A stretch of DNA of 64,000 nt from contig CM022671.1 in assembly GCA_012295275.1 (NCBI GenBank), forward strand, positions 31,372,001 through 31,436,000. Reading direction: 5' to 3'. Each line of letters starts with the position of its first letter. Positions within the stretch are counted from its first letter, which is position 1. The DNA is from Chrysomallon squamiferum (lineage: Eukaryota > Animalia > Mollusca). A model generated the notes under the pieces. It was not told the DNA's origin and did no database searches. It saw only the letters and a list, made by a program, of their open reading frames with translations. A program made the position numbers and the translations under genes. This document shows, in pieces, positions 5,749 to 64,000 of this stretch.

Positions 5749-7524
<1,776 letters not shown>

Positions 7525-12397: not shown

Positions 12398-12855
12398 TTA
12401 CTACTACTACTACTACTACTAGTACTACTACTACTATTACTATTACTACTGCTACTTTTGATTTAATTATTTATTTCTAATTTTTCGTCACAGCTGAATA
12501 TCCAGTCACTTCAGTAGACATTGGCTTACACATCATGAACAGTGTTTACGTCATCTTGAACGTCAGCGTAGCAGCATTTCCGGTCAGGTTATTCCACTAT
12601 TACCAACCTTTCATTTACGGCACACTGTATGTTACTTTCACATTTTTGTATTACAAAGCTGGAGGAACTAACCCTGATGGACAGCCATTCGTTTATTATA
12701 TGTTAGATTGGAGGAAACCAGAGAGCACTTCAGTCTTCGTAGTTTTAACTTTGTATGGATGTATTCCACTGGTTCAAATCTTTCTGTTTTCCGTGTACTT
12801 GGCGAGAGTCGCTATCTTCAAAAAAGCAAAAACATCGGATGAAGAAAGCATCTGA
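9321..12855 (+). CDS. Rolling stone-like protein, paralog 3; exons 9321-9446, 11159-11378, 11683-11793, 12494-12855 (~272 aa)
   Basis: Same exon structure; 819 nt. Motifs NFFLEYDHPVDFVQFQ|FGG, KWFIYLTNLS, YWKVIWVVFNI, LHIMNSVYVILNVSVAAFPVRLFHYYQP, AGGTNPDGQPFVYYMLDWRKP (most canonical of the three). Confidence 0.88.
11821..11904. repeat. (AG)n microsatellite in rost paralog 3 intron 3
   Basis: Perfect dinucleotide run. Confidence 0.97.
12274..12452. repeat. Compound (ATT)n/(ACT)n microsatellite
   Basis: Trinucleotide runs; many similar AAT/ACT tracts occur across the window (e.g. 985-1065, 1951-2050, 63600-63690). Confidence 0.95.
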
Positions 12856-33808: not shown

Positions 33809-45613
<11,805 letters not shown>

Positions 45614-45879: not shown

Positions 45880-47550
45880 GGCATGTAATCGGTATTTCGA
45901 CATTTCGCTACTTGCATTGACATTCGTTACAATCACTGACAATGGCATTAAAAAACAAACTTGTCGGGGGACAAAAAGAAAGAAAGAAAGAATAAAAGGA
46001 CACAAAACAAAAGCAAAAACAAATGAAATAAAATAAATCAGACTCAGGATTTCATTTAAGATTTCTCTCATGTATGAAATAACGTAATGCAAACACAACA
46101 AAAAATATTTATTTTCGTCGATCCCGATTTGCTTTTTATAGTTTACTTATGCTTAATAATTATTATCTGGAGTCTAGTAATAAATAAAACAAAATCGTAG
46201 AAGTAGAAATATACCAAATATTTTTCAGGATCTTCGTTATTCCTTGTATCTACAGTCCGATACAGTCAAGCTGTTAAATTGTTAATTTAATATATATACG
46301 TAAATCTGTGCATGAGCTGTGCGTGCGTGTGATCTACTGACATTTGTGAACTCTAGCTAAAGTAAATACAATTAAATTGGTTAATATTTAAACAGGCTTG
46401 GCTGTGGATCTTTTAAATCATAAATCCAGGATATTTCGTAACGAGTTAATACCATTATAAAAGCAACAACAAAAAAGGACCATGCCACCATTATTTCATT
46501 TTATACTTTTATGAATTTTCAATACAGTGTAATATGATCGACCATGACCATTACTACTACTGCTATTTTTATTATCATCATGATCATGATTATTATTATT
46601 ATTATTATTATTATGTAATTAAATTGCTGATAACGAAAGCGCCACAAAGATAACAATTTCAGTTTGTCTTGTGTTTTCTCGCTAGTGAAATGTTTCAATT
46701 TAATTGTATCTATATTATAGCTGTTAATATAGATTTCAAAAATGGGAAATGTTTATGCAGTAACTAATATAATCTAATACTGTGAGGATTCAAACAAGCA
46801 ACAATCTAAAAAGTTAATATTTAAGTTATTGAATTATAAATATTTAAAACTACCTTGTTGTTGTTTATGCTGCTGTTGAAGATTCGAAAGATGTTTTAGA
46901 AGATAAATATAAACAAGCATTTCAGAAAGGTGTGTTGCCCACACTTCTGTTTGATACAATAAACTAGTAAAATCAAAAAAAAATAATAATAAAACGGAAT
47001 TTTGCTATTTGTTTATTTATTTGTTTGTTTATTTATTTGTTTATTTATTTATTTATTTTCTGACTTAACTGACTTGTTTATGTATTTGCTTATTATGTAT
47101 TTTTTTACTTGTTTGTTTACTTGCTTCCTATCTTGTTATTTATTATTTTTATTTATTTATCTGAAACTAAGCCTGCTCCGCAGAGTGTTTCTTTACGCTG
47201 GAAACGCACGAATAAAGTCATGAAAAGTATCATTTGATTTCAGGAAGATGTATCATTTGATTTCAGGAAGATGTAACATTACCAGTGAAGGTTTAACTCA
47301 GATCTAAGATATTCGGTCATTCTACTGAAATTAAATGCGTGGACGTATTCTCATTGTGCTATCAGGAAGAAACGTCTCGCATGACTCACTTCTATAAAGT
47401 GCTTTTTTTTGTTGTTGTTGTTGTATCATCTTTACAATGGTCGCTTAAAAGGAGAACAGAAGCCCTTAGACAAAACCTCGGTTATTAAATGTTTGTATTA
47501 CAAACATGGTGGTAAACACACATATGTTCTCACACACATGGATGTAGTCA

Positions 47551-47588
<38 letters not shown>

Positions 47589-48051
47589 CTAGGACATGTC
47601 TACATTGAACCACAGTTGCAGCTTATCGAAGTAATCACCCCATCGAATAGCAACAGTAGATTTCTTCTTTTATGTTTGCTATAAAACTGAAAATTTGACA
47701 CATATTAATAAATAGTATTATTCCAAGATACGAGGATTCAAACAAAGGGAAGTGTTAACTGAAACAGAATGATGTAATAACAGTGCAGAAATTCTTGGAT
47801 GTTTTCTCAGAACAGGGTTCTTCAGCAGTTGGTTGTTTACCTTTTGATAAAATCCTAAACTATATGTACGTGAATATGTATATGTATATATATATATATG
47901 TGTGTGTGCGTGCGTATGTTTGTCCTTGTGTGTGTGTGTAAAACGTGAATATAAAAAGAGAATGGAAAAACATATACCACATGCAGACATATACATACAT
48001 ACACAAACATAGATCTAAAAATTAAAAAATAAAACAACTCACATTTATTAT

Positions 48052-48082
<31 letters not shown>

Positions 48083-49785
48083 TTATTATGAAGAACACAA
48101 AGTTATTAAAATGTATTTTTCTTTGTTTCATTCCTATTTCATTCTGTCGTAAACTTATAGAAATTTAAAGATAAAATGTCGTTCAATTGTTGTATTGTTG
48201 TTATTGCTACTATCTCTACTGGTACTGCTACTACGACTACTACTACTATTACTACTATTACCACTACTACTGATTTTACTATCGTATTACTATTCCTGAA
48301 GCAACAAATACAAAATTGCTGCCTATTTATAGTCCTATATATAAAAACAAGATTTTGGTTTTAAAGTAGAATTATAAGAATTCACCAAAAATGTACATTA
48401 CATATCTGAGGAGCATGTAATCAGGTATTTCGATATTTCCCTATCTGCGTAGACATTTCTTACAAAAGAATTAAAAACGTTGGGAAGAAAAAAAAAAGAA
48501 AGAAAAAAAAGAAAGAAATTAAAAGAAAAAAGGACACAAAACAAAAGCAAAAACAAATAAATAAAATAAATCAGACTGAGGATTTTATTTAAAATTTCTC
48601 TCATGTATGAAATAGCAAAATATTTGTTAGGATCTTCGTTAGTCCGAGTACCTACAGTCAGTTTTTGGAACTGACTGTTAACAGGTTATGTTAATTAAAT
48701 ACAATTAAATTAGTTAATATATAAACAGGCTTGCCTGTAGATCTTTTAAAAATAAATCATAATTCCAGGTTATTTCGTTACGACTTAAGACTGTCATAAA
48801 AACAAGAACAAAAAAGAGCACGCAACCACTAAACGAACAACAATCCTCACAAAATCCAGCCGACAATAAGTAGTAAAACAACAACATAAACAGCATGCAT
48901 CGAAAAAGAATATTTCATGTTAAATCGTTTACGAATTTTCAATACAATATAATGACCGTCGATGACCATTTGCACTACTGCTATTATTACTATTATTATT
49001 ACTATTATTATTATTATTATTATTATTATTAAATCGTAATATTTCAGTTATGTAAATGTGTATATGTATGTATTAATAGCTGTTAATATATACTTAAAAA
49101 ACTAATATAATCTAATAGTCAGTATTCAAACCACCCTGCTTTTTTTATTTATTATTTTTTTTTTCGTATATTGAAGAATTAAATAATTTCGATATTTTAT
49201 CTTTTCTCTCAGACGTAGATACACGTCCTTATGTTAAATTTATTTATTTATTATTATTTTTCATTTTTTGTTGTTGTTGTTGTTGTTTTGGTTTTTTGCT
49301 GCTGTTGAAGATTCGAAAGATGTTTCAGAAGGTAAATATATACAAGCATTTCAGAAAGATATGTTGCCCATACTGTTATGTTTGATATAATAAGCTAGTA
49401 AAAAAGATCAAACGGAATTTTACTATTTATTTATTTGTTTACTTATTTATTTTCTGATTTAACTGACTTGTTTGTTTATTTGCTTATTATTTATTTGTTT
49501 ACTTATTTGTTTACTTGCTTACTAACTTGTTCATTTATAATTTTATTTATTTATTTGTATCTAAGCCTGGTTCGCCGAGAATTCCTTTACGCTGGATAAG
49601 CACGTTCTACAAAAATGAAGTCATGAAATGTATCATTTGAGCCGAGGAAGATATAACATTACCAGAGACGATTTACTAACTCAGATATATGATATTCAGT
49701 CATTATGATTTAACTTCCCACCGTGGACTTAATCTCATTGTGCTACCAGGAAGAAAAAAGCTCAACGACTCAGCTTTTTAAAGGA

Positions 49786-49819
<34 letters not shown>

Positions 49820-51218
49820 AGATAAATGATAAAAGAAAGAAAAAAAGAGGGTCGCTTAAAAGAGTAAACAACAACAGAAAGCAATACAAAACACCAACAA
49901 ACAAATCCTTCAATAAGGAGAATGCATGCCCTTAAACAAAACTTCAGGTATTAAATGTTTATATAAAACATATATATATATATACATGTATATATATTGT
50001 CACGGGGTCCAGGGGGTAAGAGGTGTTAGCTTTCAAGTAATAACGACCCTATTAAAATATGGCTCATTTCTTGTCTAGGGTTATTTTTTTTACACATGTA
50101 TACTTATTATTTAGTGGTTCAGGATGTGGGAATTGACGCTAAATGAAATACTGTAATTCTTAATTCTTTTAATTTTCCCTAACAGCTTATTGTTAGAAAT
50201 AAATATATAACTCAAACGCTCTATGGAGCATATACAGGTTACATCAAACTGATCAACACATCTCGTTGTAATCTCCTCGGCTCTTTTGTCTTTTACTTAA
50301 ATAAACACGACGCGGACTTCAGTGAAGTCAGCAGAGCGCAGCTTAGACAAATTATTTTTGTCTCTCGCTAATGATCGTTAATTGTTAGGCTCTTTCAGTA
50401 GAAATATAATTAATACATATTGTTAGGACTATTTGTAGAAATGAATGGTTGACATATTTACTTACTTTAAGGATATATATAGGTTAATTACAAGATGTTA
50501 AACTATTTTATGTAAGCCATTTAGGTAAATATTAAATAAGTAACGACATTTTCAAAAACTGTACCTTGAAAGTAGAACAATATAAAATATACTAAGTAAA
50601 AAAATAGCTACAAGTAGGCATAACCTAAATTGCGATCAGTGGCTTAGGAAATAAGTTAGGACCATTTTGTTACGTTAAAGAAACACAGTACATCTAAATA
50701 TCACTGAAAAAACTTTCCACAGCTTGATCGAAGCCCTATCAGGGTTAGGGACCCTCCTACGTGAGGTAAAAACACGTTTTGCCGTCATAACATATATATA
50801 CGTGAATATAAAATAGAGAACGGATATACACATACCACACGCAGACATATACATACATACACAAACACACATACGTACACATATAATAATGAAACAGTAA
50901 AACAACTCACACTTATTATTATATATTTTTATTATGAAGAACAAAGTTATTAAAATGTATTTTTTTTCTTTCTCATTCCGTTTTCGTTCTGTTGTAAATT
51001 ACAGAATTGTTTTTTTTATTTTAAAGATAAAATATTGTTCAACTGTTGTATTGTTGTTGTTGCTACTACTACTACCACAACTAGTACTATTTTTACTATC
51101 ATATTACTATTCCTGAACCAACAAGTACAAAACTGCTGACTATTTGTAATCTTACATATAACCCATAGGATTTAAGTTTTAAACCAGAATCATAACAATT
51201 AACCAAAAATGTACATTA
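45880..51218. repeat. Head-to-tail tandem duplication of a ~2.5 kb non-coding unit (copy A ~45880-48399, copy B ~48413-51218)
   Basis: Collinear shared blocks: gcatgtaatc(a)ggtatttcga, atttaaratttctctcatgtatgaaata, aaacaggcttgsctgtrgatctttta, gctgctgttgaagattcgaaagatgttt, ctttacgctgga, cgtgaatataaaa, accaaaaatgtacatta. Confidence 0.9.
49998..50792. mobile_element. Candidate solo LTR (795 bp), TGT...ACA termini
   Basis: Starts TGTCACG and ends CATAACA (imperfect terminal inverted repeat), flanked by TATAT on both sides. Present in duplication copy B, absent from copy A. No coding capacity. Confidence 0.6.
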
Positions 51219-51224
51219 TATACT

Positions 51225-51256
<32 letters not shown>

Positions 51257-51873
51257 AATAAAACTTAAAATAAAATAACATAGAATAAAATACTCCAAAA
51301 CATATACAAATATTGAATAGGTCACTTCATTCCTCCGAACTTAACTGGGACACTACATAATGAGTTATTTTTTATTTATTTTTTTCATTTTTTTTTTGTT
51401 GTAAATCTTTATTAGGCCGCTGTTATTTACTGTTAGTAAAAAATATATATCATCGAAAAATCAACATAAAGCTTATATCGTTAAAAATTATTATTATAAT
51501 ATTAATGCTCATATTGTATTAAAAAAAAAAGGTAAAAAAAAAAAGCGCGTGTTAGAATTTTTCAAAGCTATTACAATCGTCCGTTTAACTCACATATGAA
51601 TTCCAATCCAACAGAATGCTCAGTTACCATGGACCAGGCGATTCTGATTTGACTTTTTTAAAAGCTGCCTTTCTGATGAAATCAAACTGGTTTTACTTGA
51701 TTTAACATTAGCAGATTGTTCTAAAGAAAATTATATATTTAGTATTATTAATACACACTTTATAAAATAATGATTTAAAAAAATTGTAATCAATTTGTTA
51801 TACTGATCCCTATTGTCACCGATCGCTATTGGAAACTATTCAGTATCTTGTCTGTTATTATTTAGTCATAACA

Positions 51874-54800
51874 TCAAACGTACGACAGATCAGACTTTTC
51901 AGATACAAATGGAGAAGTCATTTCAGTCGATTCGGAATTGCTTCTCCGTCTCACTGGAACAGATGTACTCTTTCTGGGCAGAGTGTGCGATTCTGGGTCG
52001 GAAGAAATTTCTGCGTGTTTTACATCAGTGTTTTGTCCAGTCACTGCAGAGTTAGTCACCGAACATGGCGACATTGGTGTCAAACCCTGAGCATTAATTT
52101 CTGGCTCATAGACAGGGTGTATGTAATTTCCAATGTCATCGCCAGGGTTTGTGCAATTTCCAGCATTATCACCTGAAGAAAATTCTTGACAATCCTCTGG
52201 AACCGCGTTCAAACGCTGGCGCATCTCTAACTGAAACCGGTCTTCCGCTAACACGCCAGTACCAAGTGAAACTGTTGCTGGTAAAGATGGAATATTCCCC
52301 ATGTCTTCCTGTAGAGTATTTGCTTGTTGTATATTAGCGTGGACACTGCTGCTGGAAGTGTGAGTTGTAGATCCACTGGTGGCGCTGCTGCTAGTAGTTT
52401 TCGATTCTTGAGAAGACGTGCAACATGGTACAGGATTGGAACAAATGACGCTGAGATCAAAGGCCGCTCTAGAACGCGGACGAGTTGATGGATTCAGTTC
52501 CGTATAAGTATTTTCTGGCGACAGGTAACTGTTATTTTTATAATCTATAATAAAATAAAATAAATCCAGTTAATATATCCTGAATTCAATAACACGCTAA
52601 TATCAAACACTAATACATCATAATTCAATAATACACCAATATCAGACATTAGTACGACACACGCATAGACACCCAAACACACATTAGCTTTCATATAAAC
52701 AAAATTCCATCACCGATTAATTCAACACAATCACATGGACTTACCTTGTTTTCGGCGACTTAATTTCCTCCTGATGAAAAAGAAGGCTACGATGGCCAGA
52801 AACACAAGTGCGATAAAACAGAACACTGCTAACACTATCACCACAGGCTCAAGTTCTTCCGAACTTTTACCTCCTTGTGTTATAGAAGTTGAATTATCTT
52901 TTGACTGGCGATCAGAACATACGCGACACTGCGGAAAGTATTCACAGGATGAATGGAGGTGATACCCAGTTCTTCCAAGAACGTCGTAAAATTTAATACT
53001 TTCATTTTGTAAACGAAGTCCATTTTCTTCACTGAAGCTTCCAACCTATGAAAGTGACAGAACTGTTTAAGATTACAGTAAATATAATTACAGACACTTT
53101 CATGAAAATATAACTGAGTATTATCATTTTAATATTATTTGATTTCTTTTAAAATGATTGTGCATGCATATGAACAAAACAGTTAAGTAATGAAAACGAC
53201 ACTGAATAATAATAAAAAAATAAAAAATAAATGAAACGTGAATTTTTTCAGTGAATAATTATTTTTTTATTAACTGCCAGAAACTGACGAATTTCGAAAA
53301 AGTTTTACTTAATTATATTAGCACAATAGATCTTTTATGTGTAGCAGTAAACGACAAGTATTTAATTTTTTAATAATTATAAGATAAATGGAGTTTCTTT
53401 TATAAACATATTCGTATAAAAACAACTGTCACTACAGTACTGATTAGTACTAGAATTGATGCCAGAAGGATACTTTACCGCTACGTAAGCATATGAACCG
53501 TCATTTTCATTTCGCTGAATGTTGTTGATAACGAATCCAACGTTGCCGTTTCCTCCGTCAGTGAAGAGTCTGGCTCCATCTTTAAGATTCACATTTTTTA
53601 TATTTTCGAACATAAATTCGGTAGTGAGATTTTTGCACGGCCAAGTCGCACTGGAACAAGAAAGATAATTTTTAGCGTTTCTGAAACCATATCCTACTCC
53701 ATAAACGGTTTCGGTAACTCGAACAGACAAATCTTCAGCTAAGATTTTGTCGATGTCTTTTAAATCAAGCGTAAGATTCAAAAAACACTGTTTATTAAAA
53801 GTGTTGTCGAAACCCTGTGGAAGATTGCATTCAAAGTTATCTTGCCAGAAGTGTCCTAGCCAGGGATTTTCGGACATGTTGGCAGTGCTCCAAGTTAGCA
53901 TATCATCGTACAGTTCCTTGTTGGGTTTCTTAATGACATCAACAACCAAAGTGAAAGATCCACGAACCACCGTACCACGTTTGCCCTTGAGGACATCCGA
54001 ATTTGTACCCCAAGCCTCACTTCCTATAAATATTAACGGTTCTTTACGATCCTCCATCGTATCCAGAAGACCAGACAGTACGGATGCTATCCCAAAATAC
54101 ACAACAACTTTTGCTCCAGACTTTGTGATATTTCTGATAACCTGAACACGTTTGTTCCAGTCAGCATCCGTACATATTTCTTGAAAAACACCAATACAAA
54201 TGCCTCGTTGTTCTGCCAAAATTTTGAACTGTTCAGTATGTTTTCGTCCGTTTTCATTATTTATATTTAAAGTGGCTACATAACTAACTCCCAATTCTTT
54301 AACTAACTCGACCATTGCTTTCATCTGTACATTATCACTGGGAACAGTACGCAGAAAGAGAGGATACGTCACTTTATCATCGAGAACTACAGAAGTTGCG
54401 CCATACGATATTAAAGGAATACCTTTGTTTTGTAACGTCTGCACTGCACTGAGGGTGACGATGCTGGACTGGGCACCCACGGCTGCAGCAATTCTGTTCA
54501 CATCTATCTCCTCTTTAGTGCGAGGATCTTTCAAAGGAACCTTTCCGCTGAGAATGGAATTAAGGAGAAAGCTGGCTCTCAGAGGATTGTAGCAGTCGTC
54601 GAGGGCTATGACCCCGAAATTGATTCCAGTTTCATCTTTCAAGACATGTACGGCGCTGAGAAAAGCTAACAGAGCGTGCAGTCCCCGCTGACTGTATGTC
54701 TCGCTACACAGGAAATTTTGACTGATGTGAGGTGTGTGAAGAGAAAACAGACCAAGCAAGAGAATGTCGCCAGGGATGTAGGCAAACGGAACTTCTGGAG

Positions 54801-56443
54801 TTTTTCGACATTCTTTGCAGACCTTTTTACAAGCCGAAGTAGGCAAGGTTCCAGTCGTTCTCAATTGTGTCATTAGAGTCTTGTTGAGACTCAGTTTATC
54901 ACCAGTGTAATTTCCAATCTGTGAATACATAGATAAATAGTAGTAGTAATTGTAGTAATAGTAGTATATATAGAGTAATAATAGTAGTAGTTATATTAGT
55001 AACAGTAGTAGTAATTGTAGTAGTGGTACTAGTAGTAATACTAATAGTAGCAGAAAGTGTTCCAGTAGTTACTCAAATTAAATTTATTTCTCACAAAAAA
55101 CACCCCAAAAAACAAAACAAAAACAAAAAAACTTCCCTATCCCTAAATCAAACGAATAAAAAAATAAAAACATACATATAAAATATGTCAGTTGTTTCTT
55201 CCAAAATATATTTACCAGATGAAAATGTCCACCCGAAGCTTGGTAAACAATGTAGAGAGGACAGTTGATTGCAAGCAGATCACCAGTGCTAGTCACGTTC
55301 AATATTCTGTTATTGTTGAAGAACAATTCGGGAACCATTTCTCTGCTAAGATCTGCATATTCAAAGCGTTCTGGTCTTTTATCAGGATATATTCCTTCAT
55401 CTATTTTTTTGAAAAATTCTGGACACGAGACATTCTGCGCACCACACGTATCCCTGAACACAGTTTTAGCAATGTTTGCTAGCACGTAAGTGGCATCAAA
55501 CGCGGACGTCACATAATCGTACATTGAGAACTTTGTCTCTACATTCAGGCTGGCTGCACAGGCCGGCAGATTTACGTTCGTAGTTCCTGCGGGAGAGCAT
55601 TTGAAAATTCGTTCAATGTATTCAGTGATCCACGAACCCCACTTCTGTTTCACAGCAACGTCCCCAGCGTGGTTGAGAACGTCAACTATGTTGTCCCGGA
55701 CATCGCTTAACAATGCTCCAGGCGGTGATATAACAATAACCATGTTTTCATAAGGTTGTAATTCCAAGGCTAGCTCAGGATCCCTGCCAACGCCGTCTGT
55801 CATGATCCAGTGGATATTGTGGACTTTATCTTTTTCCGGACCCCACGTTGCCGATTTTTCTGTGATAGTTCGATACAAAAGAGTCGCCTCTTTACTGAAA
55901 CCGTAGTAAACACCCCCAACATTTTCATCTAATGTTGTTTCCAGGTCAATGAAGAGAGTTCTAATAAAAATTTCCAAACTTTTCCGAAGGTCTTTATCGT
56001 TCCTCCTGACCACGTAAGTCTTGAATATGCAGATACCTGAGTCTTCGGCGAGTTGTCGGAAAAATTCAAAACCTTCGGTGCCATATTTGTCATCAGTGTG
56101 CACGCCAACGATATAGCTCCATTTGAGACTCTTAACAATGTCCAGAATTACCTGATAACAGGAGAAAAAAACCCCAAAATATAACTGAATGTCATTGTTA
56201 CTAAAGAGTATGGCGGGTACATTTCTCTTTACACACACTACACATCCACCCATACTAGTACACATTATACACATACAAACAACACAGGCAGACACAAACC
56301 ACACATACATGTACATATACACACATTCAAACACAATTACAAACAGACACATACGCAGGCAGAACATGCATCCTTAAACAAAACCGAATTAGTGGGAATG
56401 AAGAAATTAAATACTGAGTAAATCAGTTCAAGAATCTTGGAAA

Positions 56444-56479
<36 letters not shown>

Positions 56480-57937
56480 AGTTTCTATAAGCTTATGTTT
56501 GACATGCAGCAGATTTGTTATCCTCTATGAAACCATATTACACATAAACATAAGCTCACCAATGAACATATACATACACACATGTACATATATACCCATA
56601 CCTTGCTCTGCAAGGCATCAGTCGGAATTGTACTGATGTAGTTTGGATACAGAGTTTTGTTGGTCAGTTCTCGCGTCGTGGCAGATACGCCTATCATCGG
56701 AAGATGACTGGTACTCAACATGTCCGCCACAGCAGCCGTCGTCTGGCTGACAGTCGTTCCGATTATTCCTGAAAAGCAGACGAACATCGGAAGAATAAAA
56801 ATTAACGTTTTATTAATAAAGTTATCCAGTATTAGTCACATGATTTTTTTTTTTTTGGTTTGTTTTTACTAAAGACGAAATCAAAAAAAAAGATAAATCT
56901 TATCAGTCAGTAGCGAAGATGATTTTTCTCGTTTATTTAATTATTTTATTTTATTTTCACAGATTTACATAAATGTTATTATGGTCATGGAACCACACAC
57001 ACACAAAACAGACACACATACACATATACATAAAGAGAAAGAAAGAAGGACAGAGAGAGATAAACGGATAGAGATGCAGAGACAGTATATATATATATAT
57101 ATGTTTTCAGTTTATAGAATGTTAGTCGAGGGTCGTCATACATTTATTGAATCAAAACAGCATTCCTGATAAGAACACTGTGACAGTCTTAAACAATATT
57201 TGAACGAACAAAGAAAACATATTTAAAAAGTAATTTATTTTTATGGGTGACCGATTCTAGTGATATACATTTACAAGGTGCTGTTTGTCAAAAGATTTTT
57301 CCTCATGAATATCTTGTACGAAGATTACTTAGAAGTCTGTAGACGATTTCATCATATCTTTAAACATACAATTTAATTATTTCACTCTCTACTTACCAGC
57401 AATTGGCGTTTGCAGAGTTTGATTGCAGCTGCCATCCCAGATTCTGAAAAGGTTTTGCAGGGCAGTACTTTTCAAACCACAGTCATCAAATATCTTGTAT
57501 CCTGTCATAAAATTATAGTATGAAAATTTGTGTGTCTAGATATGTTTGTATGCATATGTGTATGCGATACTTATGTTAATATATTTGTTTGCTTGAATGT
57601 GTAAATTTGTATTTTTTCCAACAAAAGAAAACAAACTAACAAGAAAAAAAACTGACAACTCACCAATCTGAATTCCAGGTATAAACGACTTATTGGGATT
57701 GCCGTTTCCATTCAGCTTGTTTATTGCCCAGTCTATGGAAATAGCGTTCTGAATCTCGGTACTCGAGATCGAACCGCATAAACCACCGTCCGGCTCATGT
57801 ATTTCCAGAATGTAAATAAAGTAGATGTCACCTGCAACAGATTTTGGTTCCGATTCACAGAACAAGAGAGAACCTTTGGTATTTACAAACAAACACAATG
57901 AAATACTCAGTAAAATACTGATATACTCCATGGCCAT
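51874..57937 (-). CDS. Single-pass receptor with two tandem class C GPCR (mGluR/CaSR-like) Venus flytrap domains; exons 57937-57664, 57501-57397, 56768-56602, 56151-55216, 54918-53479, 53045-52745, 52544-51874 (~1297 aa)
   Basis: Signal peptide (ISILLSISLCLFVNTKG). VFT1: GDIYF..IHE, FIPGIQIGYKIFDDC, GIIG, YPNYISTIPTDALQ, LKWSYI, DDKYG, SGICI. VFT2: PGDILLLGLFSLH, FGVIALDDC, IPLISYGATS..LDDKVTYPLFLRTVPSD, GSEAWG, NPWLGHFWQDNFEC. One TM helix VVIVLAVFCFIALVFLAIVAFFFI followed by RRKLSRRK, then a Ser/Thr-rich tail. 3894 nt, all GT-AG, no internal stop. Confidence 0.9.
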
Positions 57938-61594: not shown

Positions 61595-61647
61595 GTAAGC
61601 TACAACAAAACAAAAACAATATCTGATCCTAAAAAACATCGCATTCA

Positions 61648-64000
<2,353 letters not shown>

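Follow-up and report, generated by a model that had tools for sequence, protein, structure and literature searches.

What does a receptor do that carries two Venus flytrap (VFT) domains in tandem, one transmembrane (TM) helix and no recognizable output domain? The question is raised by a gene on the minus strand of a 64,000-nucleotide stretch from the mollusc Chrysomallon squamiferum (GCA_012295275.1, contig CM022671.1, positions 31,372,001 to 31,436,000), which as a whole is termed here the window and whose first letter is position 1. A first-pass annotation made from the letters of this stretch described the gene as an open reading frame (ORF) for a two-site amino-acid or small-molecule sensor, signalling through recruited adaptors, or for a co-receptor or decoy for class C receptors, and belonging to no family recognised as characterised. 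The gene is real, expressed and conserved, and the single-pass tandem-VFT family that it represents is undescribed and likely an offshoot of an undescribed lineage of multi-VFT G-protein-coupled receptors (GPCRs) of class C.

Gene model and protein architecture

The gene has seven exons, 3894 nt of coding sequence for 1297 amino acids (aa), a single stop codon and six introns that are all of the GT-AG type. Its parts are listed below together with their basis, identities being to the protein of Gigantopelta aegis, the closest relative of exon 5 (61%); 3-Cys denotes a short linker with three cysteines, and UTR the untranslated region.

57664..57937, minus strand: exon 1, aa 1-91, signal-peptide-like start and beginning of VFT1 (59% identity)
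57397..57501, minus strand: exon 2, aa 92-126, lobe 1 of VFT1 (GT-AG; 74% identity, junctions gap-free)
56602..56768, minus strand: exon 3, aa 127-182, VFT1 pocket residues S134, T157 and D177 (ANF_receptor 2e-8; residue mapping)
55216..56151, minus strand: exon 4, aa 183-494, remaining VFT1 with Y205, C223 and D301 (ANF_receptor 8e-9; RNA join to exon 5)
53479..54918, minus strand: exon 5, aa 495-974, end of VFT1, first 3-Cys linker (C524, C528, C531) and VFT2 (ANF_receptor 2e-30; mGlu5 7e-35; RNA cover)
VFT2 residues within exon 5: S646, T669, D689, N717 (replacing the pocket Tyr), C735 and E795 (residue mapping)
52745..53045, minus strand: exon 6, aa 975-1074, end of VFT2, second 3-Cys linker (C1008, C1014, C1017), stalk, TM helix 1042-1060 and basic cluster (hydropathy; both junctions in two RNA runs)
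51874..52544, minus strand: coding part of exon 7, aa 1075-1297, Ser/Thr-rich tail with Y1081-L-S-P, Y1088, Y1215-I-H-P and C-terminal L-S-Y-V (acceptor from RNA joint; motifs)
51439..51873, minus strand: transcribed 3′ UTR, minimum extent (in two runs, RNA contigs extend out of coding exon 7 as far as 51439)

The RNA evidence consists of contigs from three RNA runs of one study and from one run of unknown kind, which were compared with the window from 50000 through exon 5; each contig covers part of the transcript and none the whole gene. All three RNA runs connect exon 4 to exon 5 by a loose contig end identical to the end of exon 4, and VFT1 and VFT2 are thereby linked in the transcript. 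The joins of exon 5 to 6 and of exon 6 to 7, with GT-AG ends, were found in two of the three, and all three read past the stop codon into the 3′ UTR. Thus the splicing of exon 5 or 6 into exons for a seven-transmembrane (7TM) domain or a kinase, named beforehand as one outcome that would overturn the model, is not what the RNA contains: it runs from exon 6 to exon 7 and the stop. The call for transcript confirmation is answered for exons 4-7; the junctions of exons 1-4 have as their basis the gap-free alignment with the Gigantopelta protein, whose identity amounts to 54-80% in exons 1-6 and 33% in exon 7. The introns that close VFT1 and VFT2 are identical in position and phase. A candidate acceptor of exon 7 at 52514, which gives 1287 aa, was rejected since the RNA joints place the acceptor at 52544, and this confirms the intact seven-exon frame of about 1297 aa that had originally been read from the sequence.

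The RNA runs differ from the window by about 3-4% over 51874-54918; stretches of exon 5 with little RNA cover at 95% likeness are not counted as evidence. Among the coding differences listed (40 of 140), 17 of 23 codons are non-synonymous and one alters the next-to-last residue. In the 3′ UTR, at 51783-51829, all three RNA runs have 9 other bases where the window has 45, with no splice signals, which is likely an indel polymorphism.

The order within the protein is a signal-peptide-like start, VFT1, a 3-Cys linker, VFT2, a second 3-Cys linker, one TM helix and a 237-aa tail. Pfam ANF_receptor matches exons 3 and 4 with consecutive profile stretches (54-108, then 109-169), which make up VFT1, and exon 5 (2e-30), which is VFT2. 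The linkers are spaced C524-x3-C-x2-C and C1008-x5-C-x2-C, and the ectodomain holds 13 N-glycosylation sequons. One strong hydrophobic segment was found, at 1042-1060 (Kyte-Doolittle 3.5) and followed by RRKLSRRK; the N-terminal hydrophobic stretch is weak (1.7), and the signal peptide was judged by eye, not by SignalP. Pfam searches of all seven exons gave no match to 7tm_3, NCD3G (PF07562), kinase or cyclase; among 2022 six-frame ORFs of the window the class C 7TM profile met nothing better than E 0.01, and a kinase motif search found none. Against solved structures, exon 5 matches mGlu5 at E 7e-35, and the best 60 PDB sequence matches are all metabotropic glutamate receptors (mGluRs) or T1R. 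AlphaFold predicted two VFT folds for the Gigantopelta ectodomain (pLDDT 83), and the best Foldseek match of this model is mGlu5/mGlu1. The two VFTs, Cys motifs, single helix and tail first described from the sequence therefore stand by Pfam and hydropathy, and so does the absence of 7TM, kinase and cyclase, which extends from the seven exons and, as regards 7TM and kinase, the window ORFs to the first relatives described below.

A family that probably branches inside the multi-VFT class C GPCRs

Is this architecture a peculiarity of one genome? A search with exon 5 gave 21 first relatives without 7tm_3, from gastropods, bivalves, a chiton, cephalopods and Logan contigs, and a profile search of 1.84 billion representatives gave the best 150 matches. 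Two ANF stretches are present in 20 of the first 21, while 7tm_3, NCD3G, kinase and cyclase occur in none, and a 7TM match is absent also from seven further relatives. Several are encoded on single Logan contigs of 4.2-5.4 kb, as expected of mRNAs. When 172 relatives were sorted, 58 proved to be clean proteins of two VFTs and one TM, 4 had one VFT and one TM, 5 were canonical, 19 were multi-VFT proteins with several TMs (one of them a fused canonical gene model) and 27 had no called TM; the remaining 59, fragments and fused gene models, were left unclassified. The proposed search for the same architecture in other lophotrochozoans was thus fruitful: the named single-pass members are molluscs and the brachiopod Lingula, although the taxon names rest on 30 proteins and the range of the family may be wider. 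A word-based search with Lingula VFT2 added one relative and no new named phylum, and one with the family alignment returned 3 proteins only.

Several paralogues occur per genome, two each being named in Lingula, Solemya and Potamilus. A second single-pass clade (P0088, P0091, P0099 and relatives), also with more than one copy per genome, has tails that are short, with a median of 86 aa, and that bear a strong Y-[IL]-x-P motif. An ESM Atlas cluster of 105 members is labelled 'Metabotropic glutamate receptor 6/7/8' with no 7tm_3 shown. A literature search of openly accessible main texts gave no description of tandem-VFT single-pass receptors or of multi-VFT GPCRs, although supplements on GPCR repertoires may list such strings, and six gene identifiers of the family were absent from every main text searched. 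The view that no characterised family was at hand has accordingly survived.

The units themselves have relatives that kept the 7TM domain. All 15 multi-VFT proteins tested carry 7tm_3 without NCD3G, the number of units being five in proteins from a nemertean and from molluscs, four in those from a hemichordate, a crinoid and chelicerates, and two or three in amphioxus, and their units end in the same 3-Cys linker as in the single-pass family. GPCRs of class C that have 2-5 VFTs in tandem and lack a nine-cysteine domain (P0032-P0035, P0042, P0044, P0045, P0049, P0051, P0053, P0054, P0071, P0083, P0102, P0111, P0128) were noted in a nemertean, molluscs, scorpions, a tick, a hemichordate, a crinoid and amphioxus, three of them on single Logan contigs of 8.6-10.2 kb; a nematode protein, P0149 of Romanomermis, has five units and a partial 7TM. 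The expectation that VFTs of the mGluR/CaSR type occur singly has therefore to be qualified, as there is a lineage of class C GPCRs, defined by tandem VFTs with a 3-Cys linker and having 2-5 VFTs, inside which the family branches.

Unit trees were built without the linker, rooted on T1R/V2R rows and given SH-like approximate likelihood-ratio (SH-aLRT) supports. VFT1 falls together with unit 1 of the GPCRs that have four or five VFTs (support 98, 97 and 97 in three trees) and VFT2 is sister to their units 2-4 (97, 97 and 91). In an approximately unbiased (AU) test on 44 units, VFT1 and VFT2 as one clade were rejected (p-AU 7e-9), as was a clade of all multi-VFT GPCR units that excludes the single-pass ones (3e-57). 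The phylogeny that the first-pass annotation had asked for thus nests the family units among those of multi-VFT GPCRs, and an internal VFT duplication is an unlikely source of the tandem. Of the features of that lineage, tandem units with 3-Cys linkers, homologous in register, are present in the gene, while the 7TM domain is lost. The single TM helix could not be traced to TM1 of the 7TM domain, its similarity to the 7TM part of multi-VFT proteins being generic hydrophobicity (window E 0.11).

On these sequence comparisons the gene is likely a truncated offshoot of the multi-VFT class C GPCR lineage, not of Venus kinase receptors (VKRs) or of an internal duplication, and the simplest reading of the trees would be that a multi-VFT GPCR was cut short behind its second unit. 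An ancestral class C GPCR with multiple VFTs would have been duplicated, and one copy would have kept the first two units and lost the remaining unit or units together with the 7TM domain; it would then have gained a TM helix and a tail, as the trees suggest, before molluscs and brachiopods split. VKRs are an unlikely source because their VFT is reported to be GABA-B-like (PMC2680970).

Ligand pocket, cytoplasmic tail and proposed mechanism

In mGlu1 five residues, S165, T188, D208, Y236 and D318, contact the alpha-amino-acid moiety of the ligand, according to two VKR papers (PMC4026697, PMC2680970). All five are present in 45 of 59 VFT2 and 36 of 59 VFT1 units of the family, and no unit of the GPCRs with four or five VFTs has the full set in more than 3 of 8 cases; among the first 21 close relatives the pocket is complete in 20 VFT2 and 9 VFT1. 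The lobe-2 Cys is kept in 58 of 59 VFT1 and in as many VFT2. In the window gene the VFT1 pocket is complete (S134, T157, D177, Y205, D301). The distal residues specific for glutamate, Arg78 and Lys409 of mGlu1, are not matched in this gene; the Lys409 site is R or K in 28 of 59 family VFT2 and mostly Trp in the second clade. Because the five-residue pocket is kept across the family, an amino acid is the likely class of ligand, glutamate itself not being established. The suggestion of a two-site sensor is borne out only in part: VFT2 keeps its pocket far more consistently than VFT1.

At 54227-54256 of the window (exon 5, aa 715-724) two RNA runs carry another form, in which 8 of 30 bases differ by hand comparison and the contig of the third run stops exactly at this site. 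The RNA form changes five residues, among them Asn717 to the pocket Tyr, and all five then match Gigantopelta. It may be an allele, a paralogue or a form from a sister population.

The tail has no Pfam domain match in exon 7. Tails have a median length of 286 aa in the clade of the window gene, while some members of the second clade have only 20-60 aa. Within the former, 33 of 37 end in V, I or L (5.9 expected). The motif Y-[ILV]-x-P occurs in 34 of 58 tails, 20 of 37 in the gene's clade (4.9 after shuffling) and 14 of 21 in the others (0.9), P0105, probably a cut GPCR, having been left out of these counts; it is rarer than expected in the ectodomains (10 vs. 21.3). When 140 position-residue pairs around Tyr were scanned without bias, the three leading ones were +1 L, +3 P and +1 I. 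The tail of the window gene carries Y-[ILV]-x-P twice, at Y1081 and at Y1215, and Gigantopelta shares the second site. Motifs like the immunoreceptor tyrosine-based inhibitory motif are weakly enriched (19 vs. 9.8, p 0.013), and a juxtamembrane Y-[DENH]-[DE]-[PLIV] occurs in 11 of the first 20 tails, on which it was chosen, in 4 of 19 later ones (0.3 expected) and not in the window gene. Y-[ILV]-x-P is similar to the sites at which the SH2 domains of PLC-gamma, Crk or RasGAP dock, and a terminal V or I marks PDZ ligands. The earlier idea of signalling via recruited adaptors gains support from these conserved motifs.

We lean, by a little more than even confidence, towards a single-pass double-VFT protein that detects an amino acid, or a small molecule akin to one, and relays the signal by way of SH2 and PDZ adaptors on its tail. 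Directly supported are its architecture, the splicing of exons 4-7, the family-wide conservation, the predicted fold, the pocket residues and the tail motifs. A ligand would close a flytrap, VFT2 in most members and possibly also VFT1 in the window gene and several gastropods, where it too is complete. Closure would pass through the short linker, the third Cys of which would, as in class C receptors, be paired with the conserved Cys of lobe 2, and would alter receptor pairing or clustering. A cytoplasmic or partner tyrosine kinase would then phosphorylate the Y-[ILV]-x-P sites and SH2 proteins would be recruited, while the C-terminal V or I would tether the receptor to a PDZ scaffold and fix its location.

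A number of observations weigh against this mechanism or the origin proposed above. In the pocket, VFT2 of the window gene has Asn (N717) at the Tyr236 site, Leu (Leu891) at the Lys409 site, where VFT1 has Tyr395, and Ala facing the Arg of the mGlu5 'GIQR' motif, which casts doubt on glutamate above all; in oysters and cephalopods the VFT1 pocket has degenerated. The Gigantopelta model does not fix the relative placement of the two VFTs (pTM 0.53), and the helix-C 'LF' residues of canonical mGluR rows are not retained. In the tail, a terminal V, I or L is not enriched outside the gene's clade (5 of 22 vs. 3.0 expected), Y-[ILV]-x-P is absent from 24 of 58 tails, and NPxY, YxxL/I, PxxP and PPxY are not enriched; the motifs were first noticed by eye, and relatives that share ancestry are not independent. 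As to the trees, an origin of VFT2 with the membrane-proximal unit 5 was rejected only at the border (p-AU 0.046), VKR, natriuretic peptide receptor (NPR) and GABA-B units were lacking, and the groups tested had been named after the first trees had been seen.

Other explanations use the same evidence differently. The protein could be an obligate co-receptor or trafficking subunit that joins a class C GPCR by way of its VFTs, the five-VFT relative being the most plausible partner, and lends it ligand sites, a scaffold anchor and phospho-tyrosine output while not signalling alone. Units 1 and 2-4 of the five-VFT GPCR are homologous in register to its own units, both genes occur in Babylonia, and class C receptors act as dimers (PMC4026697); however, the tail has conserved motifs of its own and the several paralogues per genome exceed what one fixed partner requires, which makes this unlikely, though the most serious of the alternatives. 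We consider it improbable that the family members are clearance, decoy or ligand-buffer receptors, comparable to NPR-C or the schistosome protein SmGBP, that bind, internalise or buffer ligand without signalling. The tails of 20-60 aa in part of the second clade would suit such a role, and Tyr motifs can serve as sorting signals, but the sorting-type NPxY and YxxL/I are those not enriched, the enriched motif has Pro at +3, and the median tail in the gene's clade is long. Non-catalytic VFT proteins are nevertheless known, and SmGBP is reported to bind glutamate without a 7TM domain (PMC3206071).

If small-molecule binding were vestigial, the VFT pair could form a rigid stalk for a protein partner or a variable environmental cue, like the amino-terminal domains of ionotropic glutamate receptors. 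The decay of VFT1 pockets in several lineages and the 13 sequons fit such an adhesion or recognition role, and the five residue differences near the VFT2 pocket Tyr together with the 17 non-synonymous codons of 23 could mean diversifying selection. The retention of all five amino-acid-binding residues in 45 of 59 VFT2, against at most 3 of 8 for any multi-VFT GPCR unit, speaks against it, and we regard it as quite improbable. Finally, the gene model could be an artefact, either two truncated mGluR-like genes side by side or the first part of a longer GPCR with 7TM exons elsewhere: the full transcript is covered by no contig, the junctions of exons 1-4 lie outside the RNA comparison, and fused models of canonical class C genes are among the matches (P0022, P0140). 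This is hardly credible, as RNA connects the VFT1-VFT2 junction, the TM exon and the stop, the order and length recur in 58 proteins, and no 7TM exon was found in the window.

Surrounding sequence, known systems and significance

The gene is flanked by a segmental duplicate (34039-36588 and 61630-63982, 82-96% identity), the copies of which hold near-identical exon-like frames of a Kelch-repeat gene, presumably muskelin-like; a Kelch exon lies at 38595-38867 on the minus strand. An older duplication, local and in tandem, lies just downstream of the gene at 45881-48404 and 48413-51222, its copies being 71-80% identical and its period about 2.5 kb. On the plus strand, 7111-7521 and 12481-12852 are exons for membrane proteins of the rolling-stone family (PF21534), which are likely tandem paralogues.

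Known VFT receptors relay ligand binding to a 7TM domain, a kinase, a cyclase or a channel. By the defining features of these groups, as read in its sequence, the gene product is not a class C GPCR, a VKR or an NPR. It shares with class C GPCRs (mGlu1-8, CaSR, T1R, V2R) the sequence and fold of the VFT, the alpha-amino-acid pocket and the lobe-2 Cys, but it has two VFTs, 3-Cys linkers instead of a nine-cysteine domain, one TM instead of seven and a long motif-bearing tail. With the multi-VFT class C GPCRs it has in common tandem units of about 480 aa, each with a 3-Cys linker, no NCD3G and homology in register, whereas those receptors keep 7tm_3 and have 2-5 units and its own family has two units and one TM. 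NPR-C is likewise a single-pass receptor of VFT fold without a catalytic domain, with one VFT of a different subtype, a peptide bound at the dimer interface and a short tail; no natriuretic peptide receptor is among the gene's best 60 PDB sequence matches, and the kinase-homology, cyclase and NPR-type VFT features of receptor guanylyl cyclases and NPRs are absent from it. An atypical VFT receptor of Entamoeba has reportedly been found. Immune non-catalytic tyrosine-phosphorylated receptors bind proteins through Ig or lectin folds.

VKRs resemble the gene product as single-pass invertebrate receptors with an amino-acid-binding VFT (PMC4026697), but have one VFT, reported to be closest to GABA-B, and a tyrosine kinase (PMC2680970), while the gene has two mGluR-type VFTs and no kinase; the best solved relatives of its VFTs are mGluRs, and the trees contained no VKR sequence. 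SmGBP of Schistosoma is comparable as an mGluR-derived VFT protein that lost the 7TM domain and still binds glutamate, but it is a single VFT of 488 aa without Cys linker, C-terminal TM or tail (PMC3206071). The vertebrate immune receptors named above share with it an unstructured tail with Tyr docking sites and no enzyme (PMC5365251), which is a functional analogy with no homology claimed; conserved Tyr motifs in a domain-free tail, a feature of that group, are present here.

One may go further and propose, with somewhat less than even confidence, an undescribed class of animal receptors: a branch of stacked-VFT class C GPCRs that swapped G-protein coupling for phospho-tyrosine and PDZ signalling, and would now serve molluscs and brachiopods as two-site small-molecule sensors without an enzyme of their own, pocket-polymorphic in this species. 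If true, the family, which keeps the ligand pocket and Tyr and PDZ docking motifs but has no 7TM domain, kinase, cyclase or channel, would add a new output to the VFT fold, and it would be a clear case of a GPCR becoming an adaptor-coupled receptor. Its members are unnamed or automatically labelled as mGluRs without 7tm_3, so that repertoires built on 7tm_3 would miss them. The two-unit receptor would offer a simple model of how stacked flytraps communicate in the giant GPCRs with 4-5 VFTs, and its orthologues in Aplysia, Octopus, oyster and mussel may be tested as candidate sensors of amino acids or settlement cues.

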